From Patescibacteria group bacterium (lineage in GTDB: Bacteria; Patescibacteriota; Minisyncoccia; Phycocordibacterales; Phycocordibacteraceae): 64,000 nucleotides of DNA. The position numbers and the translations under genes were made by a program. The notes beneath the pieces were generated by a model. That model saw only the letters and a program-made list of their open reading frames with translations, did no database searches and had not been told where the DNA came from. The stretch lies in assembly GCA_018971265.1 (NCBI GenBank), contig JAGXBE010000001.1:1051-65050 (forward strand), in the 5' to 3' direction. Shown here piece by piece: positions 5,622-41,095 of this stretch. How positions within the stretch are numbered: position 1 is the stretch's first letter; each line of letters starts with the position of its first letter.

Positions 5622-6158
5622 ATGAAACCAACCCAGACTGGAATCGCTGTTGCGCTTGCGCTCGTCGTGATCGCGGCGTTCTTTATTTTCCCGGGCCTTT
5701 TGCCCTTCACTTCGTCGGGCGCGGTCGGGACCGAGACGCCTGTTACTAACAATAATGACACGAACGTGCAAACAGCATCTGCCACAGCATCTACCGAATC
5801 TGCCGGTACACCTCCGGTTACGCAGCTTACGGTGACTGACGAAGTCGTCGGTACAGGCGCCACTGCGGTAGCGGGCGACAGTGTAACAGTTAACTATGTC
5901 GGCGCTCTGACTAACGGTACCGTTTTCGATGCCTCCGCCAATCACGGGACTTCCGGCTTTACCTTCACGCTCGGCGCGGGACAGGTCATTAAAGGATGGG
6001 ACGAGGGCATCGTCGGTATGAAAGTGGGCGGCAAGCGAAAGCTCATCATCCCCGCTTCGCTCGCGTACGGCAACCAAGCAATCGGGAACATAATCCCGGC
6101 AAACTCAACTCTTGTTTTCGAAGTTGAGCTTTTAAAGGTACAGACGCAGGGTAAGTAA
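5622..6158 (+). CDS. FKBP-type peptidyl-prolyl cis-trans isomerase, membrane-anchored or secreted
   Basis: N-terminal TM/signal (IAVALALVVIAAFFIF). FKBP core motifs are VTVNYVGALTNGTVFDAS, GAGQVIKGWDEGIVGMKVGGKRKLIIP and LVFEVELL. Confidence 0.8.
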   Translation: MKPTQTGIAVALALVVIAAFFIFPGLLPFTSSGAVGTETPVTNNNDTNVQTASATASTESAGTPPVTQLTVTDEVVGTGATAVAGDSVTVNYVGALTNGTVFDASANHGTSGFTFTLGAGQVIKGWDEGIVGMKVGGKRKLIIPASLAYGNQAIGNIIPANSTLVFEVELLKVQTQGK

Positions 6159-6944: not shown

Positions 6945-8171
6945 GTGTACATGAGTTCGATTTCTTTCACCATAAAGAAGCGCGCGCTGGCGTGTGGCGC
7001 CCGTGCCGGTGTTCTCACAACGCCTCACGGAATCATCCATACGCCCGCTTTTGTGCCGGTCGGCACCAAGGCGGACGTAAAGGGCATCCTGCCGGATGCT
7101 CTGAGTCTGCTCGGTGCCGAGATGGTTCTTGCGAACACCTACCATCTCTATCTGCAGCCGGGTGAGGGAATAGTGCAGAAGGCGGGCGGACTTGCGAAAT
7201 TCATGAACTGGCAGGGTCCGACCATGACCGACTCGGGCGGCTTCCAGGTTTTCTCGCTTGGCGCCGCTTTTGGAAAGACCATCTCGAAATTCGTACAGGG
7301 CGATGCTCCGAGGGAAGAGGCGGTCGCCGTCTATGACGAGAACGTTGCAAGCCAGCACGGTCAGCTCGCGGTCATCGATGAAGAAGGCGTTTCATTCACT
7401 TCTCATCTCGACGGCTCGCTTCATCGCTTCACACCGGAGCGTTCCGTCGAGATACAACACGCGCTCGGCGCGGATATTTTCTTTGCTTTTGATGAATGCA
7501 CTTCGCCAAACGAGCCGCATGACTACCAGAGGGAGGCGATGGAGCGCACGCATCGCTGGGCCGAACGCTCGCTGAAGACGCATCGGCAGAATCTTGAGGC
7601 GAAAAAGCGACAGGCACTCTTCGGTATCGTGCAAGGAGGGCGACACGAAGATTTGCGCAAAGAGTCCGCGCGCGCCATCGCCGCGCTTGGTTTCGATGGC
7701 ATCGGCATCGGCGGTTCGTTCAGCAAAGAGGACATGCGGGGCGCGCTTGCGGCCGCGGTAGGGGAGCTACCGGAAGAGCTTCCTCGGCACTTCCTCGGCA
7801 TTGGCGAGCCGGGCGATATCCTCGAGGGCATTGCGCATGGCATGGATCTTTTTGATTGCGTCGCGGCGACGCGTATCGGGCGGCACGGTTCCATTTACAC
7901 GCGCCGCGGCATCATCCACCTCACGGGCGAGAAGTTTAAGGATGACTTCGACCCGCTTGATCCCGAAATCGGTATCGCCGGCACGGAGAATTTCACGCGT
8001 GCGTACGTGGCGCACCTCATCCGCGCCAAAGAGATGCTCGGCTCGGTGATCTGTTCAATGCATAACGTCGGCTTCATTCTCGACCTCGTCAAGGGTGCGC
8101 GCCAAGCAATCGTCGATGGACGATTCGACGAATATCGTGCAGACTTTGTGCGCACGTACTACCGCTCATGA
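6945..8171 (+). CDS. tgt: queuine tRNA-ribosyltransferase
   Basis: TPHGIIHTPAFVPVGT, ANTYHLYLQPG and WQGPTMTDSGGFQVFSLG all match Tgt. An alternative start lies two codons downstream. Confidence 0.85.
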   Translation: MYMSSISFTIKKRALACGARAGVLTTPHGIIHTPAFVPVGTKADVKGILPDALSLLGAEMVLANTYHLYLQPGEGIVQKAGGLAKFMNWQGPTMTDSGGFQVFSLGAAFGKTISKFVQGDAPREEAVAVYDENVASQHGQLAVIDEEGVSFTSHLDGSLHRFTPERSVEIQHALGADIFFAFDECTSPNEPHDYQREAMERTHRWAERSLKTHRQNLEAKKRQALFGIVQGGRHEDLRKESARAIAALGFDGIGIGGSFSKEDMRGALAAAVGELPEELPRHFLGIGEPGDILEGIAHGMDLFDCVAATRIGRHGSIYTRRGIIHLTGEKFKDDFDPLDPEIGIAGTENFTRAYVAHLIRAKEMLGSVICSMHNVGFILDLVKGARQAIVDGRFDEYRADFVRTYYRS

Positions 8172-10222
8172 ATAATTTCAAACTCCACACACCGTTCTTA
8201 CCGGCGGGCGATCAACCGGCGGCCATCGATGCACTTGAGCGGGGCCTCAAGGAAGGGTTGCGGCACCAGACCCTACTCGGTGTGACCGGGAGCGGAAAAA
8301 CCTTCACCATCGCAAACGTCATTGCAAGGTTTAACAAGCCGACCCTTGTCCTCGCGCACAACAAAACGCTTGCAGCGCAACTCGCGCAGGAATATCGGGA
8401 GTTCTTCCCGGAAAATGCGGTGCATTATTTCGTCTCCTATTACGACTACTACCAACCGGAGGCGTACATCGCGCACTCGGACACCTACATCGAGAAAGAA
8501 GCTATGATTAACGCCGAGATAGATCGATTGCGCCACGCGGCGACGCAGGCTTTGCTTACGCGCAAGGACGTCATCATCGTCGCATCCGTCTCGGCTATAT
8601 ACGGTCTCGGTTCTCCGGAAGAGTATCAGAAAGTGCACGTCAAGATAGAGAAAGGAACGGCGGAGAATCGTGCCGCGCTCATCCGCAAACTCGTCGGCAT
8701 TTATTTTGAACGGACGAACGCCGACCTCAATCCGGGGCAGATGCGCGCCATTGGCAACTCACTTGAGTTTATGCCCGTTAACGAGCGGGTGATGTACCGT
8801 ATCGCGTTTGGGGGCGATGTCATCACGGGGATCGATCAGCTTGACCCGGTCTCGCGCGCAAGGATGGCGGAACCGAAATCGGTTTTCGTCTTTCCGGCAA
8901 AACATTTCGTTACGAGCGAAGAGAAGCGCGATAGCGCCCTTAAGAACATAAAGCTCGAGCTCGATGAACAGCTTGCAAAATTCAAGCGTGAGGAAAAACC
9001 GCTCGAGCACGAGCGATTGAAGCGTCGCACGCTCCACGACATTGCGCTCATCCGCGAGCTCGGTTATACGAGTGGCATCGAAAACTATTCTCGCCATTTC
9101 GATGGACGTGCTGCCGGCGAACCTCCGCACACGCTCCTTTCTTATTTCCCGCACAAAAAAGACGGTGCACCGGACTTTCTTACCGTCATCGACGAGTCGC
9201 ACGTTACCGTTTCGCAAATAGGAGGCATGTATGCGGGCGATAAGTCGCGCAAAGACAATCTCGTCGAGTACGGTTTTCGTCTCCCCTCGGCGCGCGACAA
9301 CCGCCCGCTCATGTTCGAAGAGTTCGAAGAGCGCGTCGGACAGGTCGTGTACACGAGTGCGACACCGGGGGATTATGAACGCGCGCATTCCGGGCAGATT
9401 GTCGAACAGGTTATCCGTCCAACGGGGCTCATCGATCCCGAACTCGTCATACGCAATGTGACGGAAACCGGAAAGTACTCGGGACAGATCGCGGATTTCA
9501 TCGGTGAGGCGGAGATCGTTATCAAGCGCGGCGGCCGCGCGCTTGCGACGACGCTCACAAAGCAGATGGCGGAAGATCTCGCGGCATACCTGCGCGAACG
9601 CGGGATAAAAGCCGAGTATCTCCACTCGGACGTGAAGACGATAGATCGCATCGATATTCTCACCAACTTCCGCAAAGGGAGGTTTGACATTCTCGTCGGC
9701 GTGAATTTGCTTCGTGAGGGCCTCGACTTACCGGAGGTAGAGCTCGTCGGTATCCTCGATGCCGACAAAGAGGGCTTCCTGCGGAGCGAGACGTCGCTTA
9801 TTCAAACCATCGGCCGCGCCGCGAGGAATGTCCTCGGCCGCGTCATCCTCTATGCCGATGTCATGACCGGTTCCCTCGAGCGCGCAATTTCAGAAACAAA
9901 TCGCCGCCGCGCGCTCCAGATCGCGTATAACGGGAAGCACGGCATCACACCCGTTTCCATTAAAAAAGAAATTCATGATATCGCGGCGTCTATGCGCACG
10001 GAGCACCAGCGCACCATTGACGAGCTTTTGGTATTGGATACGCTCGCGTACAAAGATGATCCCGCGGCTTTCATCAAGCGCAAGAGGGAAGAGATGGCGG
10101 GGGCGGTGGAGCAACTGGACTTTGAAACCGCCGCGCTCATCAGGGACGAGATCTACAAGCTTGAAGGCATCGGCCCCAGGGCTCGCAAACCCCGCACTCG
10201 CAAGCCACTTTCAGGTTCTTAG
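8168..10222 (+). CDS. uvrB: excinuclease ABC subunit B
   Basis: [15 protein letters not shown], helicase motifs and a C-terminal UVR domain ([15 protein letters not shown]). ATGA overlap with the tgt stop. Confidence 0.95.
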
Positions 10223-14692: not shown

Positions 14693-15655
14693 ATGCAAAC
14701 TATCGTCGGCGTGCTGCGTGGCGGGCCGTCGCGCGAACATGAAGTCTCGCTCAAGACGGGTGCGGCCATTCTCGCAAATCTGCCTGAAGACCAATTTCTC
14801 GCGCGTGACATTTATATCGATAAAAATGGCGGGTGGCATGATCGCGGGCGCCCAACCGCGCCCGATCGCGTGTTGCGCCAGCTCGATGTTATTCTCATCG
14901 GTCTTCATGGTGAATACGGCGAGGACGGGGGCGTCCAGAAACTGCTCGACCGGTTCGGGGTCCCCTATGCCGGCGCGGATTCCTTCGGTTCGTATCTCGC
15001 GATGCACAAGCTCATGGCAAAAGTGCGCGCGCAAGAGACAGGGCTCTTCACACCGAAGTTCCGGCACATCGAGCGTGTCGCGGATGCCGAGGCGGCAGTA
15101 CGCGAGATCATCCGTGCCTTCCCGCAGCCGGTTGTCGTGAAGCCGGTCGGTTGGGGTTCATCGATCGGTGTTTCCATCGTGGGCGGGTATGCGCCGGTAC
15201 TCGCCGCAATCGAAGGACTTTTTACCGAAGGCGCGCCGAGTGTCCTCGTTGAGGAATATATCCGAGGTCGAGAAGCGACGGTGGGAGTCGTTGAAAAGCT
15301 CAGGAACAAACCGCTTTACGTACTTCCAACAATCGAAATAATACCGCGGAAGGGAAATTTCTTTTCGTATGCCGCCAAATATTCCGGCGAAACACGCGAG
15401 ATTTGTCCGGGCAATTTCTCTCGCGTCGTGACGGAAGAGCTTCAAAAAGCAGCGGAAATAATGCACCGCGCCCTTGGCCTAAGGCATTACTCGCGCACGG
15501 ATTTTCTTATCGCACCGAAAGGCGTGTATTACCTGGAGACCAACACATTGCCAGGCCTTACCGAGGAATCTCTCCTACCGAAATCACTCGCTGCAGTCGG
15601 CGTTTCGTTTCCAGACTTCCTCTCACATCTGGTCAATCTTGCGCTCACGCGGTAG
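14693..15655 (+). CDS. ddl: D-alanine--D-alanine ligase
   Basis: MQTIVGVLRGGPSREHEVSLKTG and ATP-grasp motifs. Start chosen at 14693 rather than the upstream in-frame ATG at 14636. Confidence 0.85.
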   Translation: MQTIVGVLRGGPSREHEVSLKTGAAILANLPEDQFLARDIYIDKNGGWHDRGRPTAPDRVLRQLDVILIGLHGEYGEDGGVQKLLDRFGVPYAGADSFGSYLAMHKLMAKVRAQETGLFTPKFRHIERVADAEAAVREIIRAFPQPVVVKPVGWGSSIGVSIVGGYAPVLAAIEGLFTEGAPSVLVEEYIRGREATVGVVEKLRNKPLYVLPTIEIIPRKGNFFSYAAKYSGETREICPGNFSRVVTEELQKAAEIMHRALGLRHYSRTDFLIAPKGVYYLETNTLPGLTEESLLPKSLAAVGVSFPDFLSHLVNLALTR

Positions 15656-15666
15656 AGTTTCTGCAG

Positions 15667-15739
15667 GGGCCGTTAGCTCAGTTGGTAGAGCACCTCGTTT
15701 GCAACGAGGGGGTCGCAGGTTCGAATCCTGTACGGTCCA
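15667..15739 (+). tRNA. tRNA-Ala (anticodon TGC)
   Basis: Cloverleaf folded by hand. Acceptor GGGCCGT with a G3:U70 pair (Ala identity element), anticodon loop TTTGCAA, T-loop TTCGAAT. Confidence 0.8.
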
Positions 15740-15789
15740 CAGAGCGAGAAAAAGTCGGATTATAGCACCGGCTTTTTCTTGCTTTGTGG

Positions 15790-15824
15790 CGGCGGATGTA
15801 CAGGATTCGAACCGATACGGTCCA
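15790..15824 (+). other. degenerate duplicate of the tRNA-Ala(TGC) 3' end (tRNA fragment)
   Basis: ggatgtacaggattcgaaccgatacggtcca shares TACGGTCCA and TTCGAA with the Ala 3' end located 50 nt upstream. It cannot fold as a T-arm. Confidence 0.4.
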
Positions 15825-15855
15825 TCTATCTTTTTATGTTATCCTGCTACAGTTC

Positions 15856-16042
15856 GCGCTCTTAGCTCAGTTGGTTAGAGCAGTTCGTTCACCCCGTTAG
15901 ATAATTGGGCGGTTAGCTCAGTTGGTTAGAGCGTACGCTTCACACGCGTAAGGTCACAGGTCCGATTCCTGTACCGCCCACCGGGTGTTATCTAACGGGG
16001 CAAGCACGCGAAAGGTCAGGGGTTCGAATCCCTTAGAGCGCA
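15856..16042 (+). ncRNA. Val-like tRNA gene split into 5' and 3' halves by a 135-nt insert that itself contains tRNA-Val(CAC); the halves are bridged by a 13-bp inverted repeat
   Basis: The 5' half gcgctct/ta/gctc-agttggttag-agc...gttcgttcac is complementary at the acceptor to the 3' end agagcgc, with T-arm aggggttcgaatccctt. Between them, ccccgttagataa (15892-15904) and ttatctaacgggg (15988-16000) are perfect reverse complements bracketing the inner tRNA. The outer anticodon stem pairs poorly as written. Confidence 0.35.
15907..15980 (+). tRNA. tRNA-Val (anticodon CAC), nested inside the split Val-like gene
   Basis: Acceptor GGGCGGT/ACCGCCC, D-arm tagctcagttggttagagc, anticodon stem tacgc/gcgta with loop TTCACAC, T-arm acagg-tccgatt-cctgt. 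Confidence 0.8.
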
Positions 16043-16061
16043 CACGGGAGGTGTTCTGTGT

Positions 16062-16133
16062 CGGGCCGGAGTATGCCGGTAGTACGCACGCTTCGGGTGC
16101 GTGTAGACCGGGTTCAATTCCCGGCGGCCCGAC
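16062..16133 (+). tRNA. tRNA-Pro (anticodon CGG)
   Basis: Acceptor CGGGCCG/CGGCCCG with C1:G72, anticodon stem cacgc/gcgtg with loop TTCGGGT, T-arm ccggg-ttcaatt-cccgg. Flanked by 11-bp direct repeats gaggtgttctg at 16048-16058 and 16153-16163. Confidence 0.8.
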
Positions 16134-16305
16134 AAAGAACATCTCTCGAAGAGAGGTGTTCTGGACCGCCAGGAATTGAGGGCCGGAGCGCGACGGCGTG
16201 AGGCGGGGTCGCGCAACACTCACAACGGGCTATAAGCAAAGCTTTCGTCTCCGTTGTTCCGGAGAGAATAATCATAGGAAGACTTGTGTTACTCTTCCTC
16301 CACAA

Positions 16306-16376
16306 CGGGCTATAGTATACCGGTAGTACGCATGCATGGGGTGCATGTAGACCGGGTTCGATTCCCGGTAGCCCGA
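16306..16376 (+). tRNA. tRNA-Pro (anticodon GGG)
   Basis: Acceptor CGGGCTA/TAGCCCG, anticodon stem catgc/gcatg with loop ATGGGGT, T-arm ccggg-ttcgatt-cccgg. Its first 14 nt (cacaacgggctata) are repeated at 16221-16234. Confidence 0.7.
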
Positions 16377-16461
16377 AAGTAGCGAAGCGAGGTAAGGAAT
16401 GGGAACGCGGAACGTTCGCCCGGGAATCGAAGGTCGGAAGGGTGAATTTTATTTTTCCGCG

Positions 16462-16470
16462 TGATAAAAT
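16462..16470 (+). promoter_or_regulatory. extended -10 box TGATAAAAT 9 nt upstream of tRNA-Ala(CGC)
   Basis: TGnTAnnAT motif seen in the sequence. Confidence 0.35.
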
Positions 16471-16479
16471 CGTCCCTAT

Positions 16480-16552
16480 GGGCCATTAGCTCAGTTGGTA
16501 GAGCGCGTCATTCGCATTGACGAGGTCAGGAGTTCGACTCTCCTATGGTCCA
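16480..16552 (+). tRNA. tRNA-Ala (anticodon CGC)
   Basis: Acceptor GGGCCAT/ATGGTCC with G3:U70, anticodon stem cgtca/tgacg with loop TTCGCAT, T-loop TTCGACT. Confidence 0.8.
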
Positions 16553-16561
16553 CCGTGCTTC

Positions 16562-16632
16562 GGGCCTATAGTTCAGCGGTAGAACGCGTCCATGGCATGG
16601 ACGAGGTCGGGGTCCGACTCCCCGTAGGTCCA
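16562..16632 (+). tRNA. tRNA-Ala (anticodon GGC)
   Basis: Acceptor GGGCCTA/TAGGTCC with G3:U70, anticodon stem cgtcc/ggacg with loop ATGGCAT. Confidence 0.75.
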
Positions 16633-16723
16633 CAAAATTAACGAGCCGTAATCGGCGATTATAATTTTGTAGGATATCGAGGTATTCCGAGGCGCCACAA
16701 ACAAAAAGTGTTACTATAATTTC

Positions 16724-17125
16724 ATGCTAAAAGAATTTAGACAATTTTTACTTCGCGGAAATGTCGTCGATCTGGCGGTTGGCGTCGTAGTCGGCGCAGC
16801 ATTCGGCACAGTTGTATCAGCTCTCGTCTCTGATCTCTTAACCCCGCTTATCGGCGCGGTCGCTAAAGTCCCTGACTTTAGCAAACTCTCGTTCACCCTC
16901 AACGGAAGCACATTCATGTATGGCCACCTCTTTAACGCGCTCATTTCTTTCGTTCTTGTCGCCGGCGCCGTTTTCTTTTTTGTGGTGAAGCCGATGAATT
17001 TGCTCGTTGCGCATTCGCGCACGGAAGCGCCGGCCGATCCGACAACCAGGAAATGTCCGGAATGCATGAGCGAGATTCCAATCAATGCGAAGCGCTGCAT
17101 GTACTGCACGCAAACCGTTGCTTGA
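16724..17125 (+). CDS. mscL: large-conductance mechanosensitive channel with a C-terminal zinc-ribbon-like tail
   Basis: MLKEFRQFLLRGNVVDLAVGVVVGAAFG is the MscL signature. The C-terminus ends KCPECMSEIPINAKRCMYC (CxxC...CxxC) instead of the usual helical bundle. TATAAT box at 16715-16720. Confidence 0.85.
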   Translation: MLKEFRQFLLRGNVVDLAVGVVVGAAFGTVVSALVSDLLTPLIGAVAKVPDFSKLSFTLNGSTFMYGHLFNALISFVLVAGAVFFFVVKPMNLLVAHSRTEAPADPTTRKCPECMSEIPINAKRCMYCTQTVA

Positions 17126-37056: not shown

Positions 37057-37854
37057 ATGGCCCCGAAAGAATACAAACCGAAAGCAGGCTACGGACCATT
37101 TGATCCAGCGGGGACCGAACCGTTCAGGGTGAGTCGTTCGAAAATCGACCTTTTTACCGAATGTCCGCGTTGCGCCTACCTGGACCTGCGGCTCGGCGTT
37201 AAACGACCCTCGGGCCCCTCCTTCACGCTCAATAATGCCGTTGATGAGCTCCTGAAACGCGAGTTCGATATCCATCGCGCGAAAGGCACTCAACATCCTT
37301 TGTTGAAACTCTACGGTGTCGATGCGATTCCGCTTGCAGACGAACGTCTCGAGGAGTGGCGCGACGCGCTGCGCCGAGGCATCAGCTATTTACACGTGTC
37401 GACAAACCTTTTCATACGAGGCGGTATTGATGATGTGTGGATCAATCCCGCAGGAGAGCTCATCATCGTTGACTACAAAGCCACCAGCAAAAAAGAAGGG
37501 CCGAGCAAAGAGGAGGACTTGTACGCTTCGTACAAGCGGCAGATGGAAATCTATCAGTGGCTCTTTCGCAAGAACGGGTTTTCGGTATCGCCAGCCGGTT
37601 ATTTTGTCTATGTCAACGGGCGTGCCGACGCCAAAGCGTTCGACGGTAAGCTTGAGTTTGATATAGTGCTCATCCCATATGCGGGCGACGACGCCTGGAT
37701 CGAACCGGCTCTTGTAAAAATGAAAGAAATGCTCGTGAGCGAGGAAATTCCTGGAATCGGCACTTCGTTTAGCGGCGGGCCCTGCGAGTACTGTACCTAC
37801 CGCGAAGCCGCCGGCAAGAAACTGCTCGCGCTCCATCAGAAGGGGAAGAAATAA
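37057..37854 (+). CDS. PD-(D/E)XK nuclease, RecB/Cas4-like, with four Cys (CPRC ... CEYC) for a possible Fe-S cluster
   Basis: Motif II is GGIDDVW, motif III is IVDYK, and a QhxxY motif (RQMEIYQW) follows. Cys pairs at both termini resemble Cas4/AddB nuclease domains. No CRISPR array or cas genes are nearby. Confidence 0.6.
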   Translation: MAPKEYKPKAGYGPFDPAGTEPFRVSRSKIDLFTECPRCAYLDLRLGVKRPSGPSFTLNNAVDELLKREFDIHRAKGTQHPLLKLYGVDAIPLADERLEEWRDALRRGISYLHVSTNLFIRGGIDDVWINPAGELIIVDYKATSKKEGPSKEEDLYASYKRQMEIYQWLFRKNGFSVSPAGYFVYVNGRADAKAFDGKLEFDIVLIPYAGDDAWIEPALVKMKEMLVSEEIPGIGTSFSGGPCEYCTYREAAGKKLLALHQKGKK

Positions 37855-38522
37855 TGGAAGTGAAAATTGATTCGTCGTGGAAGAAACATCTTGCGAACGA
37901 ATTCGCGCAGCCGTACTTTGCGGAACTGGCCGCGTTTGTGAAGAAGGAATATGAAGACGAGGCCGTCTATCCGCAGCCGAAAAATATCTTCCGCGCATTC
38001 GACCTTTGTCCGTTTGGAAAAGTGAAGGTGGTTATCTTGGGACAGGATCCGTATCACGGAAAAGGGCAGGCAAACGGACTCGCTTTCGCCGTTGATGAGG
38101 TACAGACGATACCGCCTTCGCTCCAGAACATCTTTAAAGAAATAGAGAGCGATTTCGGAAAGCCGCTCATGCACCGCGACGGCGATCTCACCCGATGGGC
38201 CGTCCAGGGAGTTCTCTTGCTGAACGCGACCCTCACCGTGCGCGCGCATCAGGCCGGCTCGCACCAAGGACGGGGCTGGGAAGAGTTGACCGACGCCGCC
38301 GTGCGCGCGCTCTCGGAGGAGCGTGAGCATTTGATCTTCATGCTCTGGGGCAACTACGCCAGAGCGAAAGGAGCGCATATCGATAGAAATAGGCACCTCG
38401 TCCTTGAGGCACCGCACCCGTCGCCCTTCTCCGCCGCGAGCGGCTTTTTCGGCTCTCGGCATTTCAGTCGCGCGAATGAATACCTCATCGCTCACGGGGA
38501 AACCCCGATCGACTGGCTCTAG
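37854..38522 (+). CDS. ung: uracil-DNA glycosylase (family 1)
   Basis: GQDPYHGKGQANGLAFAV, the water-activating motif, and the HPSPFSA leucine-loop region. Confidence 0.9.
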   Translation: MEVKIDSSWKKHLANEFAQPYFAELAAFVKKEYEDEAVYPQPKNIFRAFDLCPFGKVKVVILGQDPYHGKGQANGLAFAVDEVQTIPPSLQNIFKEIESDFGKPLMHRDGDLTRWAVQGVLLLNATLTVRAHQAGSHQGRGWEELTDAAVRALSEEREHLIFMLWGNYARAKGAHIDRNRHLVLEAPHPSPFSAASGFFGSRHFSRANEYLIAHGETPIDWL

Positions 38523-38525
38523 ATC

Positions 38526-39122
38526 TTGCGTATACTCAACCTCATGAACCACACGCCACAAATAAAAAAAGCGATCCAGTTCGCCGCACGGAAGCACCAT
38601 GGCCAGATGCGTCTTGAGACGGAACCGTTGCCGTATGTGACGCATCTTTTTTCGACGGCGCTTCTCGTTGCCGAAGACGGCGCAGGGGACGACGTTATCA
38701 CGGCGGCGCTTTTGCACGATACGCTCGAAGATACCGGCACCACGCGCGAGGAACTCATGGACGCGTTCAGCGAACGCGTCGCGGAACTTGTCGAATCGGT
38801 GAGTGAGGTCAAAGAGAAAGACGGAAAAAAACTCAATTGGAAAGAACGCAAGGTAGACTATCTCATGCGCCTTGAGGATGCGGACAGCGATGCAGTACTC
38901 ATCGCCATTGCCGACAAAATAGACAATATCGAGAGCAAGCTCGAGGCGCTTGAAAAAGAGGGTGCAGCGCTTCTTGCGCGCTGGAAGCAGCCGGTAGAAG
39001 AGTACTTGTGGTACCACGGCGAGGCGCTCCGCATCGCACAGAAACGACTGCCGGAACATCGGCTCACGAAACGTCTCGCTGAAATACACGCAAAAGAAAA
39101 GAAGATGCTCTCGGGGAGATAA
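38526..39122 (+). CDS. HD-domain hydrolase related to the RelA/SpoT hydrolase domain (small alarmone (p)ppGpp hydrolase-like)
   Basis: HHGQMR ... YVTHLFSTA ... DDVITAALLHDTLEDTGTT matches the RelA/SpoT HD motifs. No synthetase domain is present. Confidence 0.65.
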   Translation: MRILNLMNHTPQIKKAIQFAARKHHGQMRLETEPLPYVTHLFSTALLVAEDGAGDDVITAALLHDTLEDTGTTREELMDAFSERVAELVESVSEVKEKDGKKLNWKERKVDYLMRLEDADSDAVLIAIADKIDNIESKLEALEKEGAALLARWKQPVEEYLWYHGEALRIAQKRLPEHRLTKRLAEIHAKEKKMLSGR

Positions 39123-39127
39123 CCCTA

Positions 39128-41095
39128 TCACCAAATTTTCGCTCGGTCTTTCGGTTTTCTATACAACAAATCCCCCTTTTGCACGCCAAACGCTTTGTAA
39201 AACTCCGGCAAATTTGAAGCAGGACCGTTGACGCGGAAAATACCGGGCGAATGAGGGTCGGTGAGCACCTGCGTTTTTTCCGTCTCGGGCCGCCGGTTCT
39301 CGCGCTCGAAGAGCGCGAGACCGAGGAAGAAACGCTGTTCGGGGGTAAAACCACTGCGGTTCTTACGTCCCGTTTTTGAAAGGCGGAATTGATATGCATC
39401 GTAGGCGATTGAAGCTCCGCCGAGGTCGGCGATATTTTCACCCAACGTCAACTGTCCGTTCACCTTGAGTCCGTCCGCAACGGTATATTCGTTGAATTGC
39501 CTCACGAGTACCCAGGCTTTTTTATCGAAACGGGCACGGTCTATCTTCGTCCACCACGTCTTCCTGTTTCCCTTGCCGTCAAATTTGGCACCCTGATCGT
39601 CAAAACCGTGCGTTATCTCGTGGCCAATGACCGAACCCATGGCACCATAATTGAGAGCATCATCAGCGTTTGTCGAAAAGAACGGCGGCTGTAGTATCGC
39701 TGCGGGGAAGACAACATCGTTTAACCCGAAACTGCAATACGCGTTTACCGTCTGCGGGCTCATGAACCACTCGCCCCGATCGACCGGTTTTGTAAGGCGT
39801 CGCATCACGCGTGCATGTTCAAACAATGCCGCACGAACGGAGTTTCCGAAATAATCGTCGGGCGAAATGGAAAGGCCGCGATAGTTTTTCCATTTATCGG
39901 GATAACCGAGTTTCCGGTTCATTTGGCGAAGCTTCTGAACCGCCTTTCGTTTTGTCGAAGAACTCATCCAGTCGAGACTCTTGATGCGCGCTTCATATGC
40001 CCTGAAGAGATCCTCAACTACCTCTACGATCTTCTTTTTTGCGTCCGGGCCGAAATACGCTTGTACATATAGCTTGCCGAGGAGCTCGCCAAGGTTGCCG
40101 TTGACGGCGTTCAGGGCGCGGCGCCACAAGGGCTTCATTTTTCTGGTGCCTGAAAGCACGGTGCCGTAAAAAGCAAAGTTTTGCTTCTCGAATGGCGCGG
40201 AAAGGAGGCCTGCCGCACCGCCCACCAAATGCCAGGTAAGGTAGGTTTTCCAATCCTGAAGCGATTCCCTTACGAGCATTCCGTTCACGGCCTTAAAGAA
40301 CCCCGGCTGCATAACAACGACTTCGCGGACATTGCGCGCGCCGATGATTTTGAAAAAAGAGTCCCATTCTACGGCGCGCGCAAGGCGAGCAAGCGCAGGA
40401 CGGCGCATCTTGTGATATGTCTTGTCGACATCGCGCAAATCCTCCTTCGACATGGATATTTCCGCAAGGGAAGTCTCCATGCGCAAAACGGTCTCGGCGT
40501 TGCGTCGCGCCTGCGCTCTTGTTTTTCCCAAAAGCACGAATATGGCTCTAAGATGCTTCTTATACGCCGTACGTACACGCACCGACTCTGCATCATGCTC
40601 CAGATAATAATCGCGATCGGGCATCCCGAGACCGCTCTGGTGGAGGTAAAGAATGTATCGCTCGCTATTTTTCATGTCTTGGTCAACCATCACGCCCCAC
40701 GGGCCTCCTCCGCCGATTTTCTCAAGATGCGCGAATGTATCGACGAGTGAGCGCACATCTTTGATTCCTGCGATGCGGAGAAGCCACGGAGCAAGCGGTT
40801 TCGCGCCAAGTGAATTGCGCTTCTTCATGTCCAAACCGGAACGATAATAATCGCGAACCATTTTTTCTGGACTGCCCGCTTTTAAATTTCTCTTATTTTG
40901 GAGTTCCAAGACAATGGCACGAAGTTTTTTTTCGGTGTCATAGCGAAGCATGTGAAAAGACCCCCAACGGGACTCGTGCGGGGGTATATGATTTTTCTTG
41001 AGCCAGCGGCCGTTTGCATAGTGGTAAAAGTCATCTTGCGGCCGAATGTCTCTATCCATGCCCCGCACGTCAAACCCCTCTCCATTCTTTTTCAT
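39128..41095 (-). CDS. M13 family zinc metallopeptidase (neprilysin/PepO-like)
   Basis: HEITHGFD zinc motif, 655 aa. No obvious signal peptide. Confidence 0.85.
   Translation of the reverse strand: MKKNGEGFDVRGMDRDIRPQDDFYHYANGRWLKKNHIPPHESRWGSFHMLRYDTEKKLRAIVLELQNKRNLKAGSPEKMVRDYYRSGLDMKKRNSLGAKPLAPWLLRIAGIKDVRSLVDTFAHLEKIGGGGPWGVMVDQDMKNSERYILYLHQSGLGMPDRDYYLEHDAESVRVRTAYKKHLRAIFVLLGKTRAQARRNAETVLRMETSLAEISMSKEDLRDVDKTYHKMRRPALARLARAVEWDSFFKIIGARNVREVVVMQPGFFKAVNGMLVRESLQDWKTYLTWHLVGGAAGLLSAPFEKQNFAFYGTVLSGTRKMKPLWRRALNAVNGNLGELLGKLYVQAYFGPDAKKKIVEVVEDLFRAYEARIKSLDWMSSSTKRKAVQKLRQMNRKLGYPDKWKNYRGLSISPDDYFGNSVRAALFEHARVMRRLTKPVDRGEWFMSPQTVNAYCSFGLNDVVFPAAILQPPFFSTNADDALNYGAMGSVIGHEITHGFDDQGAKFDGKGNRKTWWTKIDRARFDKKAWVLVRQFNEYTVADGLKVNGQLTLGENIADLGGASIAYDAYQFRLSKTGRKNRSGFTPEQRFFLGLALFERENRRPETEKTQVLTDPHSPGIFRVNGPASNLPEFYKAFGVQKGDLLYRKPKDRAKIW

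Follow-up and report, generated by a model that had tools for sequence, protein, structure and literature searches.

Structured modules behind tRNA genes and the repeat-rich tRNA array of a Patescibacterium

We analysed a stretch of 64,000 nt of DNA from a Patescibacteria group bacterium (GenBank assembly GCA_018971265.1, contig JAGXBE010000001.1; hereafter the window), in which an array of six transfer RNA (tRNA) genes has spacers rich in tRNA fragments and short repeats. It is common practice to take duplicated tRNA ends as integrase scars, and a first-pass annotation had read those of this array as traces of site-specific integration. The main finding of our analysis is a family of structured, non-coding units, called module A, that lie behind tRNA genes and are flanked by inverted and direct copies of the 3' part of the host tRNA. 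Truncated copies of it are present in the array. We consider it somewhat probable that the tRNA fragments and repeats are mostly decayed copies of module A together with helper helices, and that the spacers are a mosaic of four kinds of elements that all bear RNA structure.

A structured RNA family encoded behind tRNA genes

Module A was first recognised at positions 16136-16216 of the window, which are 85% identical to positions 7141-7220 of a related locus (L002; loci are cited by L numbers throughout). Similar stretches were then collected and share a motif composed of GAA(A/T)G-NNC-GGAG, a first hairpin, CGAG-N'N'-GG and a long second hairpin with an invariant G.U pair. The comparison set consisted of 80 related Patescibacteria loci (817 kb), retrieved via Ddl, and 120 metagenome loci. 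A covariance model built from seven copies aligned with MAFFT found 21 copies in the former and, after a pattern scan, 37 in the latter, i.e. 58 copies of a unit of ~75-125 nt with two hairpins.

The copies of module A covary strongly. In the hand-checked alignment of the seven sequences, 94.6% of the cells are paired, compared with 77.6% in shuffles and 34-47% in slid controls; compensatory changes affect 10 of the 16 pairs of hairpin 2, and one G.U pair is invariant. In the alignment of all 58 copies, which was fitted to the model, 94.7% of the cells are paired (72.7% in shuffles, 34-47% in slid controls), 14 of the 19 pairs show compensatory changes, and 57 copies retain the G.U pair. Among the pairs of module A, G.U combinations far outnumber A.C combinations (87 versus 6), and the structured strand is therefore the tRNA-sense strand.

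Searches of Rfam 15 returned no match to module A, even at E <= 10 with a 401-nt stretch containing an intact copy. For the window and the intact copies, the gathering score was passed by tRNA only, and the best other models were far below their cut-offs. We also compared the module by eye with K-turn, box C/D, H/ACA, T-box, SRP domain IV, hammerhead, HDV-like and twister RNAs; none of them fits, in agreement with Rfam. A literature search yielded no description of a comparable module, the nearest being the group I introns found in Patescibacteria tRNAs. A pattern scan of viral contigs (GCCGGAGN{10,40}GAGGCGGGGYYG) returned 120 loci and was too unspecific, and the only two hits of the covariance model in viral loci were false positives in GC-rich coding sequence with no tRNA nearby. 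Judging from its strong covariation, module A is a real family of structured RNAs; it is previously uncatalogued.

Address and flanks of module A

In Patescibacteria of the Paceibacteria type, module A has a strict genomic address. For 47 of the 58 copies, a tRNA gene lies on the same strand within 200 nt upstream, and several of the remaining 11 follow tRNA 3' ends overlooked by ARAGORN. The host tRNAs represent at least 20 anticodon species, including Ala, Val, Pro, Arg, Leu, Asn, Ser, Gly, Lys and Glu tRNAs. In an intact copy, the tRNA is followed by a terminator-like hairpin that begins in the tRNA 3' end, a segment called anti-X, the conserved core and a segment called X. Anti-X is the reverse complement of the host T-loop and the 3' strand of the T-stem, often with the 3' strand of the acceptor stem as well; in some copies, an AGC-hairpin-GCG insert separates its acceptor and T-arm parts. 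X repeats the sequence of the host tRNA exactly and in direct orientation, as a rule from C56 through the 3' end into the trailer, and reaches up to 41 nt. The 3' end of the module (..GTGACC) abuts X directly, and X starts at C56 in 14 of 24 clear cases.

These flanks are specific to the neighbouring tRNA. Of the 47 copies, 19 (40%) have a direct copy of 12 nt or more of the cognate tRNA tail, compared with 0.7% for non-cognate tRNAs, and 34 (72%) have an inverted copy of 8 nt or more, compared with 8%. The direct copies extend over 28-41 nt across L002 (29 nt), L037, L217 (39 nt), L212 (41 nt) and L260. In the downstream spacers of the 80 related loci taken together, segments of 10 nt or more that are exactly complementary to the 3' part of the spacer's own tRNA were found in 13 cases and in none of three control comparisons; direct tRNA copies, reaching 35 nt, are likewise common. 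Since anti-X and X are complementary, the RNA is predicted to be closed by a helix that corresponds to the acceptor/T-arm half of the tRNA next to it. In the sequences of the T-loop class, anti-X reads as the 5' strand of the acceptor stem followed by that of the T-stem (L011, L046, L006, L302, L298, L218 and L224), and Ala-derived copies keep the G3.U70 pair (GGGCCGT).

Orthologous sites differ in their occupancy. The Ala-TGC site is empty in L001, harbours full modules in L006, L011 and L046 and contains a remnant in the window. Module A lies behind Pro-CGG in L002 and behind Pro-GGG in L022, in which the Pro-Pro spacer has 17 nt and is empty.

Two further arrangements were observed among the relatives. 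L215 (13878-14131) has tandem tRNA-Arg(TCT) genes, of which the downstream one is intact and the upstream one is identical to it through position 53; the upstream gene then contains module A in its T-loop, followed by a decayed 3' end. Tandem modules behind a single tRNA occur at L015 8823-9055 and in L249, L290 and L297. Each tandem copy then has its own terminator-like hairpin, which starts in the 3' end of the preceding unit, and the two copies of L249 are 97% identical. Hairpins with an A-tract and a T-tract were found in relatives such as L015, L041, L059 and L033; the consensus terminator scan made no call behind the tRNAs of the window, and the combined sigma-70 and terminator scan of the array was uninformative.

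Repeats of the array compared with chance

All five motifs listed in the first-pass annotation are present in the array at the positions given there. An 11-mer (GAGGTGTTCTG) occurs at 16048-16058 and 16153-16163, a 14-mer (CACAACGGGCTATA) at 16221-16234 and 16301-16314 and a 9-mer (GGGCCGGAG) at 16180-16188, while the hairpin at 16137-16161 comprises 10 Watson-Crick pairs and one G.T pair. The fifth motif, at 15794-15824, had been described as a degenerate copy of the 3' end of tRNA-Ala(TGC). It is mainly an inverted copy, as 15798-15813 is complementary to 15718-15733 at 16 of 16 positions; a 9-nt direct copy (TACGGTCCA) then follows at 15816-15824. Similarly, the 14-mer duplicates five leader nucleotides and nt 1-9 of tRNA-Pro(GGG), which starts at 16306, rather than the first 14 nt of that tRNA.

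We compared the spacers with 500 dinucleotide-preserving shuffles. With all spacers shuffled, the array has 24 direct pairs of 11-mers (shuffled mean 0.13) and eight inverted pairs of 12-mers (shuffled mean 0.12), and none of the 500 shuffles reaches either number. With the two halves of the outer tRNA-Val gene (see below) masked, direct repeats of at least 11 nt form two families, the 11-mer and the 14-mer (0.11 expected; 2 of 500 shuffles), and inverted repeats of at least 11 nt form five (0.25 expected; 0 of 500). The inverted repeats are the stronger signal. Direct 9-mers form four families where 1.6 are expected, which 51 of the 500 shuffles reach; thus, GGGCCGGAG and TACGGTCCA are not individually beyond chance. 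The proviso of the first-pass annotation that the repeats might be at chance level therefore applies to the 9-mers alone, and not to the 11-mer, the 14-mer and the inverted repeats. The strongest signal of the locus had mostly been overlooked: behind each of three tRNAs, Ala-TGC, Pro-CGG and Pro-GGG, the T-arm and 3' end of the same tRNA recur in reverse complement (inverted repeats I3, I4 and I7, respectively).

An independent metagenome-assembled genome (MAG) of the same species (L201), with 26 single-nucleotide polymorphisms over 8277 nt, shows zero differences from the window across 15600-16800. The structure of the array is therefore real and fixed in that population, not an assembly artefact. 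In another conspecific assembly (L202), the first base of contig JAGWNJ010000002.1 coincides with that of tRNA-Ala(CGC), equivalent to position 16480 of the window, which makes the array an assembly breakpoint.

Truncated copies of module A in the array

The features of the array are listed in Table 1. The terminator-like hairpin behind tRNA-Ala(TGC), which the consensus scan did not call, has the same architecture in relatives. The segment that follows has the flanks CCGTACAGGATTCGAA ... CTGTACGGTCC, which enclose full modules at L006 5855-5959, L011 7970-8062 and L046 7378-7470, and its X continues directly into the ancestral Ala-Val spacer known from the empty site of L001. By comparison with these sequences, 15798-15824 is an Ala-TGC module from which the core and 6 nt of X have been deleted. 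What is left of the anti-X segments is still predicted to fold back strongly on the tRNA tails; for Ala-TGC, the minimum-energy fold of 15667-15815 (-82.2 kcal/mol, z = -9.0) has the T-arm and the 3' strand of the acceptor stem paired with downstream sequence.

Behind tRNA-Pro(CGG), homology identifies positions 16150-16216 as anti-X followed by the first ~40 nt of the core. The covariance model scores its core region (hit 16177-16257) at 21.5 bits (E = 0.15), compared with 50-102 bits for the highest-scoring intact copies. The 9-mer GGGCCGGAG, previously taken for a fragment of the 5' end of tRNA-Pro(CGG), proves to be the core motif GCCGGAG of module A, which is also found behind Ala, Arg, Leu and other tRNAs. 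Behind tRNA-Pro(GGG), the segment 16420-16445 is probably a third stump, to be compared with the full module behind Pro-GGG at L022 7201-7270. As the copies are truncated and the array is fixed in the conspecific MAG, they reflect old decay rather than recent rearrangement.

Table 1. Features of the tRNA array (positions in the window)
Positions	Strand	Feature	Basis
15667-15740	+	tRNA-Ala(TGC); positions 15718-15740, in its 3' part, form the 5' arm of a long foldback	ARAGORN, Rfam
15737-15789	+	Terminator-like extended hairpin starting in the tRNA-Ala 3' end (CCACAGAGCGAGAAAAAGTCGG / CCGGCTTTTTCTTGCTTTGTGG)	I2, 22-nt arms, 86% complementary
15798-15824	+	Core-less module A remnant: anti-X GTACAGGATTCGAA, short linker, X TACGGTCCA (15816-15824)	16-nt inverted repeat 15798-15813
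15856-15892	+	5' half of the ancestral outer tRNA-Val(CAC), pseudogene	nt 1-26 100% identical to uninterrupted Val in >25 relatives
15892-16000	+	Palindromic element, 13-bp arms 15892-15904 / 15988-16000, cargo tRNA-Val(CAC) 15907-15982	I6, 13/13
16005-16044	+	3' half of the ancestral tRNA-Val(CAC)	40/40 identical in L002 and L038; 39/39 in L045
16045-16061	+	Conserved tRNA-Pro(CGG) leader with the upstream 11-mer; pairs with the trailer 16134-16148	Inverted repeat I1; relatives
16062-16133	+	tRNA-Pro(CGG)	ARAGORN, Rfam
16134-16179	+	Trailer 16134-16148, GAA loop, anti-X 16151-16179 with the downstream 11-mer	I4 (17 nt, 88%), D9; homologous to L002 7141-7180
16177-16216	+	5' part of the module A core (TGAGGGCCGGAG-CGC GACG GCG-TGAGGCGGGG-TCGCGCAA), stopping before the second hairpin	L002 homology
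16221-16305	+	Module B, conserved tRNA-Pro(GGG) leader; small hairpin and long bulged hairpin 16261-16298	Homologues
16306-16376	+	tRNA-Pro(GGG)	ARAGORN, Rfam
16420-16445	+	Probable third module A stump: anti-X CCGGGAATCGAA, then GGTCGGAAGGGTGA resembling the core start AGCCGGAGG	I7, 12/12 complementary to 16357-16368
16480-16633	+	tRNA-Ala(CGC) and tRNA-Ala(GGC), without module	ARAGORN, Rfam

A precursor helix around tRNA-Pro(CGG)

The two 11-mers that bracket tRNA-Pro(CGG) had been interpreted as a flanking duplication, a view that we cannot uphold. The upstream 11-mer belongs to a conserved leader: the spacer between Val and Pro(CGG) is identical at 27 of 27 positions in L002, L009, L018 and L022. 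In ~25 loci, 12-14 of the 14 leader/trailer pairs are kept, and in L046, L047, L057, L066, L003 and L005, the leader and trailer sequences are wholly different yet still complementary. The helix of 14-16 bp around this single tRNA is a conserved precursor stem that covaries between lineages.

The downstream 11-mer belongs to the anti-trailer arm of a foldback, in which anti-X is the reverse complement of the Pro-CGG trailer and the acceptor 3' strand, the T-stem and the T-loop. Two segments that are both complementary to one trailer must resemble a direct repeat; hence, the 11-mer pair is not a target-site duplication. The segment 16137-16147 of the trailer is able to pair with either the leader or anti-X.

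A leader module ahead of tRNA-Pro(GGG)

The 14-mer at 16221-16234, a copy of the leader and of nt 1-9 of the tRNA, forms the beginning of a distinct unit of ~85 nt, called module B. Its homologues precede Pro-GGG at L009 7334-7414, Pro-CGG at L027 6040-6118 and Ala-TGC at L018 7101-7046 (minus strand), and every copy opens with the first 7-9 nt of its own tRNA. The stems show compensatory changes (CACGAG/CTCGTG, CATACG/CGTATG and GTCACAAG/CTTGTGAC). Module B appears to be a portable leader, and it may have a promoter or leader role.

A tRNA-Val gene split by a palindromic element

The array contains a tRNA-Val(CAC) gene nested between the two halves of another. Relative to L002, the 5' half of the outer gene has two indels that break the anticodon stem. 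The palindromic element that carries the inner gene has a predicted fold with z = -4.6, in which the cloverleaf of the inner tRNA is intact, and the inner tRNA-Val is closest (~90%) to the Val genes of the distant Paceibacteria L047 and L051. The comparisons indicate that the ancestral Val gene was split in its anticodon loop by the palindromic element, whose cargo, a tRNA-Val of the type of a distant lineage, replaces the resulting pseudogene.

The palindromic hairpin (CCCCGTTAGA..TCTAACGGGG) also occurs without cargo, at L036 1244-1272, where uvrB ends, and at L028 2071-2114, near uvrA; positions 10190-10215 of the window may be compared with them. In L036, it is a 33-nt insertion replacing the last codons of uvrB. 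No second copy was found in the 64-kb window. The copies devoid of cargo suggest a family of small mobile palindromic elements. We also considered the outer Val as an intron-containing gene, of the archaeal bulge-helix-bulge type or with a group I intron. There is no such geometry and no Rfam intron hit, and the insert of 110 nt, which contains a complete replacement Val, and the two indels of the outer gene further count against an intron.

Genomic context and search for integrases

The six tRNAs, on which ARAGORN and Rfam agree (15667-16633; Ala-TGC, Val-CAC, Pro-CGG, Pro-GGG, Ala-CGC and Ala-GGC), lie between uvrB-uvrA-uvrC-ndk-ddl on one side and mscL, a SWIB gene and the atp operon on the other. 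The source of the window is a Patescibacterium of the Paceibacteria/Kaiserbacteria type. As reported in the first pass, no integrase is visible: the regions searched contain no integrase, recombinase or transposase domain. Pfam analysis of the conspecific locus, extending 4 kb on either side of the array, returned only UvrA, UvrC, NDK, Ddl, MscL, SWIB and ATP synthase. Among 30 mid-sized open reading frames (ORFs) of the window, none has such a domain at E <= 1e-5, and nine have no Pfam hit at all. In relatives, the interval from Ala-TGC to Val consists of 0-4.5 kb of varied genes with housekeeping functions (S1C protease, SHMT, PhoH and others), and no integrase island was found in it.

A direct repeat of the tRNA 3' part that bounds an insert is present, in the window as the 9-nt TACGGTCCA behind Ala-TGC. 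However, the inserts are of 75-250 nt, non-coding and covarying in the manner of RNA, not kb-sized islands with cargo. The proposal that the duplicated tRNA ends are integration scars thus holds in so far as insertion of DNA at or within tRNA genes has left them as footprints, but the agent is not an integrase island. Similarly, the description of the locus as a recombination hotspot is apt for the clade, in which variable genes, an inverted block, the presence or absence of modules and the split Val attest to plasticity, and not for a recent rearrangement. The first-pass annotation had stated that an identical array in relatives would denote an ancient structure. The conspecific array is identical and the copies are truncated, which indicates old decay, whereas other relatives vary.

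Several other features of these loci were noted. Compared with the window, seven relatives (L013, L015, L016, L029, L031, L036 and L073) have an inverted and rearranged Val/Pro block, with the order Pro-GGG, Val, Pro-CGG on the opposite strand. L022 has a partial second tRNA-Ala copy behind Ala-TGC (5815-5871), which is read into the start of an S1C-type protease ORF, as given by the annotated length of the ORF. An AT-rich stretch, TTTT(A/G)TTTTTC..TNNTAAAATCG, is conserved at 16446-16479 of the window and at L002 7400-7440, directly upstream of tRNA-Ala(CGC); it is probably the promoter of that tRNA, although the consensus scan did not call it. Finally, an ORF of the PD-(D/E)XK nuclease family (37057-37851) lies beside two large minus-strand ORFs without Pfam match (37839-39134 and 39131-41095); as far as tested, these genes have no relation to the tRNA array.

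Discussion

In the scenario that we favour, four kinds of elements would make up the spacers. The leader-trailer helix of ~15 bp would prolong the acceptor stem of pre-tRNA-Pro(CGG) and serve as a processing or stability stem. Three dead copies of module A would lie behind Ala-TGC (without core), Pro-CGG (with ~40 nt of the core) and Pro-GGG (a stump). Module B would provide Pro-GGG with a leader that opens with the 5' end of that tRNA, which is the 14-mer, and the ancestral tRNA-Val would have been split by a palindromic element that brought its replacement. The tRNA fragments recorded in the first pass would be there because the anti-X and X flanks of decayed modules have survived. Module A itself would be an insertion element that is non-coding, depends on structure and enters copies of tRNA genes in their T-loop or 3' end. 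It would be transcribed with or next to the tRNA and excised by tRNA-processing enzymes, possibly RNase P and RNase Z, because its closing helix imitates the top half of a tRNA, with the core in the place of the T-loop. Such an element would persist for long periods and often decay.

Several points weigh against this scenario. The argument for a function at the RNA level comes from covariation, and fitting the alignment of the 58 copies to the model inflates its paired fraction, although the seven-sequence alignment agrees with it. In the commonest form of the module, which is associated with Ala and Val tRNAs, anti-X has only ~7-10 nt (TTTGTGGA) and can be read as the 3' side of an extended terminator stem; the mimicry of a tRNA top half is clear only in the T-loop class. 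The assignment of 16420-16445 is weak, as the segment is too short for the covariance model and its fold has a z of only -1.5. Except for one tandem pair, copies of the same genome are no more alike than copies of different genomes. This speaks against recent bursts of transposition and agrees equally well with vertically inherited small RNA genes. In addition, no known mechanism yields both inverted and direct copies of a target. A Campbell-type crossover of a tiny circle composed of anti-X, core, X and terminator would give the observed order, but it is unlikely, because it needs a DNA circle of 150-250 bp.

A more ambitious idea, possible although we would not call it likely, is that module A represents a new kind of protein-less, structure-dependent element, which homes to the T-loop or 3' end of tRNAs, rebuilds a top half from the sequence of its host tRNA and is matured by the tRNA-processing machinery. 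It would be a selfish RNA gene, possibly with a catalytic or guide-like activity in its conserved three-way-junction core. The same observations could be viewed from the side of the host, a reading that is rather unlikely but that we take seriously. Modules A and B and the foldbacks would then be vertically inherited cis elements that serve the cell as small RNA genes or as processing or termination signals, and they would be fitted to each tRNA by gene conversion of the neighbour's 3' end and selection on the complementary strand. The triple of anti-X, X and tRNA tail would allow alternative pairings, by which the folding of the pre-tRNA, its 3' processing or termination could be adjusted. 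The deep conservation of the structure with its invariant G.U pair speaks for such a role, as do the alternative partners of the Pro-CGG trailer segment and the high predicted stability of the Ala-TGC tail foldback. Copies at orthologous sites can be the most similar ones (0.87 between L033 and L006 behind Val), those within a genome not being especially alike. The direct copies are long and exact, and the inverted ones are imperfect with G3.U70 kept in Ala, as expected of conversion followed by compensatory selection. However, all three copies of the window are truncated although their tRNAs are intact and the array is fixed in the conspecific genome. Moreover, orthologous sites can be empty, as in L001 and in the short Pro-Pro spacer of L022, and the spread over so many tRNA species, and once into an interrupted tRNA copy, requires repeated new associations.

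Classical site-specific integration, by which the repeats would be attL/attR-type remnants of integrase islands or phages later deleted to stubs, is improbable. Direct tail copies from the T-loop or 3' end into the trailer, here of up to 41 nt, are indeed what such elements leave, and the genes found between Ala-TGC and Val differ among relatives. Yet neither the surroundings of the array nor the 30 ORFs of the window contain an integrase or recombinase domain, the intervening genes of relatives are housekeeping genes and the viral scan produced nothing but false positives. In over 50 instances, a module of 75-250 nt is all that lies between the repeats, and decay cannot produce RNA-type covariation. 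An inverted copy is unexpected at an att site ~100 nt from the direct copy, and the 11-mer pair is accounted for by the geometry of the helices. Chance matches in GC-rich, tRNA-like sequence, or misassembly of a repetitive tRNA region in a metagenome bin, are hardly credible. The 9-mers are within chance and one conspecific assembly breaks exactly at 16480, but the shuffle tests reject this explanation, the array is identical in an independent MAG and every segment of the spacers has homologues elsewhere. Decayed copies of module A, with the accompanying helices, remain the reading that we prefer.

With its strict address behind tRNAs and its flank rule, by which the host tRNA is copied from C56 on in both inverted and direct orientation, module A corresponds to no curated family or known element. 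Should it be mobile, it represents a new route by which non-coding DNA targets the tRNA genes of Patescibacteria, whose genomes are highly reduced; should it be a host RNA, it defines a new class of tRNA-linked RNAs, with dozens of examples for biochemistry. In practice, modules and stems hamper the assembly and annotation of tRNA arrays, as illustrated by the conspecific contig that breaks in the array, and create tRNA pseudo-fragments. The nested Val shows that the splitting of a tRNA gene can be made good by a cassette bearing the replacement.

Comparison with known systems

Module A shares several properties with islands and prophages of tyrosine integrases. In both cases, the intact tRNA is kept, a direct tRNA copy, from the T-loop or the extreme 3' end through the trailer, lies on the far side, and the older copy remains joined to the ancestral downstream DNA. 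In contrast to these islands, module A has no integrase and no cargo: it is a covarying, non-coding unit of 75-250 nt with an extra inverted copy on the near side and repeats of 5-41 nt. The group I introns of Patescibacteria tRNAs come from the same phylum and also are structured RNAs that interrupt tRNA-type genes, as module A does in the T-loop copy of L215. However, at ~100 nt, module A is too small for a group I core and gives no Intron_gpI hit; it normally lies behind intact tRNAs and has inverted and direct flanks, not two exons.

The helices that are not part of module A have their own counterparts. The leader-trailer stems of rRNA operons, of the RNase III type, are long covarying helices like those found here, of 14-16 bp around Pro(CGG) and 13 bp around the inner Val. 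Here, they surround single tRNAs, and cleavage by RNase III is putative. Like repetitive extragenic palindromic (REP) sequences and miniature inverted-repeat transposable elements (MITEs), the element that splits Val has terminal inverted repeats (13/13) and copies at unrelated sites in relatives; unlike them, it holds a whole tRNA gene in its loop and sits in an anticodon loop.

The closing of module A by a helix like that of acceptor stem and T-stem, predicted from the sequences of the T-loop class, would resemble the architecture of transfer-messenger RNA (tmRNA), YrlA-type Y RNAs, mascRNA and viral tRNA-like structures. By analogy, its top-half-like helix suggests recognition by RNase P, RNase Z and the CCA-adding enzyme. 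The Rfam models of tmRNA and YrlA gave weak hits to the tRNA-like parts only, and module A differs from all these RNAs in that its putative mimic is rebuilt from the adjacent tRNA, its core replaces the T-loop and a genome has many copies. Finally, the small RNAs of tRNA spacers, such as 3'ETS-leuZ of Escherichia coli, are likewise encoded directly behind a tRNA, from which processing could release the RNA. Unlike them, module A is a conserved multi-copy family that has a fold defined by covariation and is tied to the sequence of the host tRNA.

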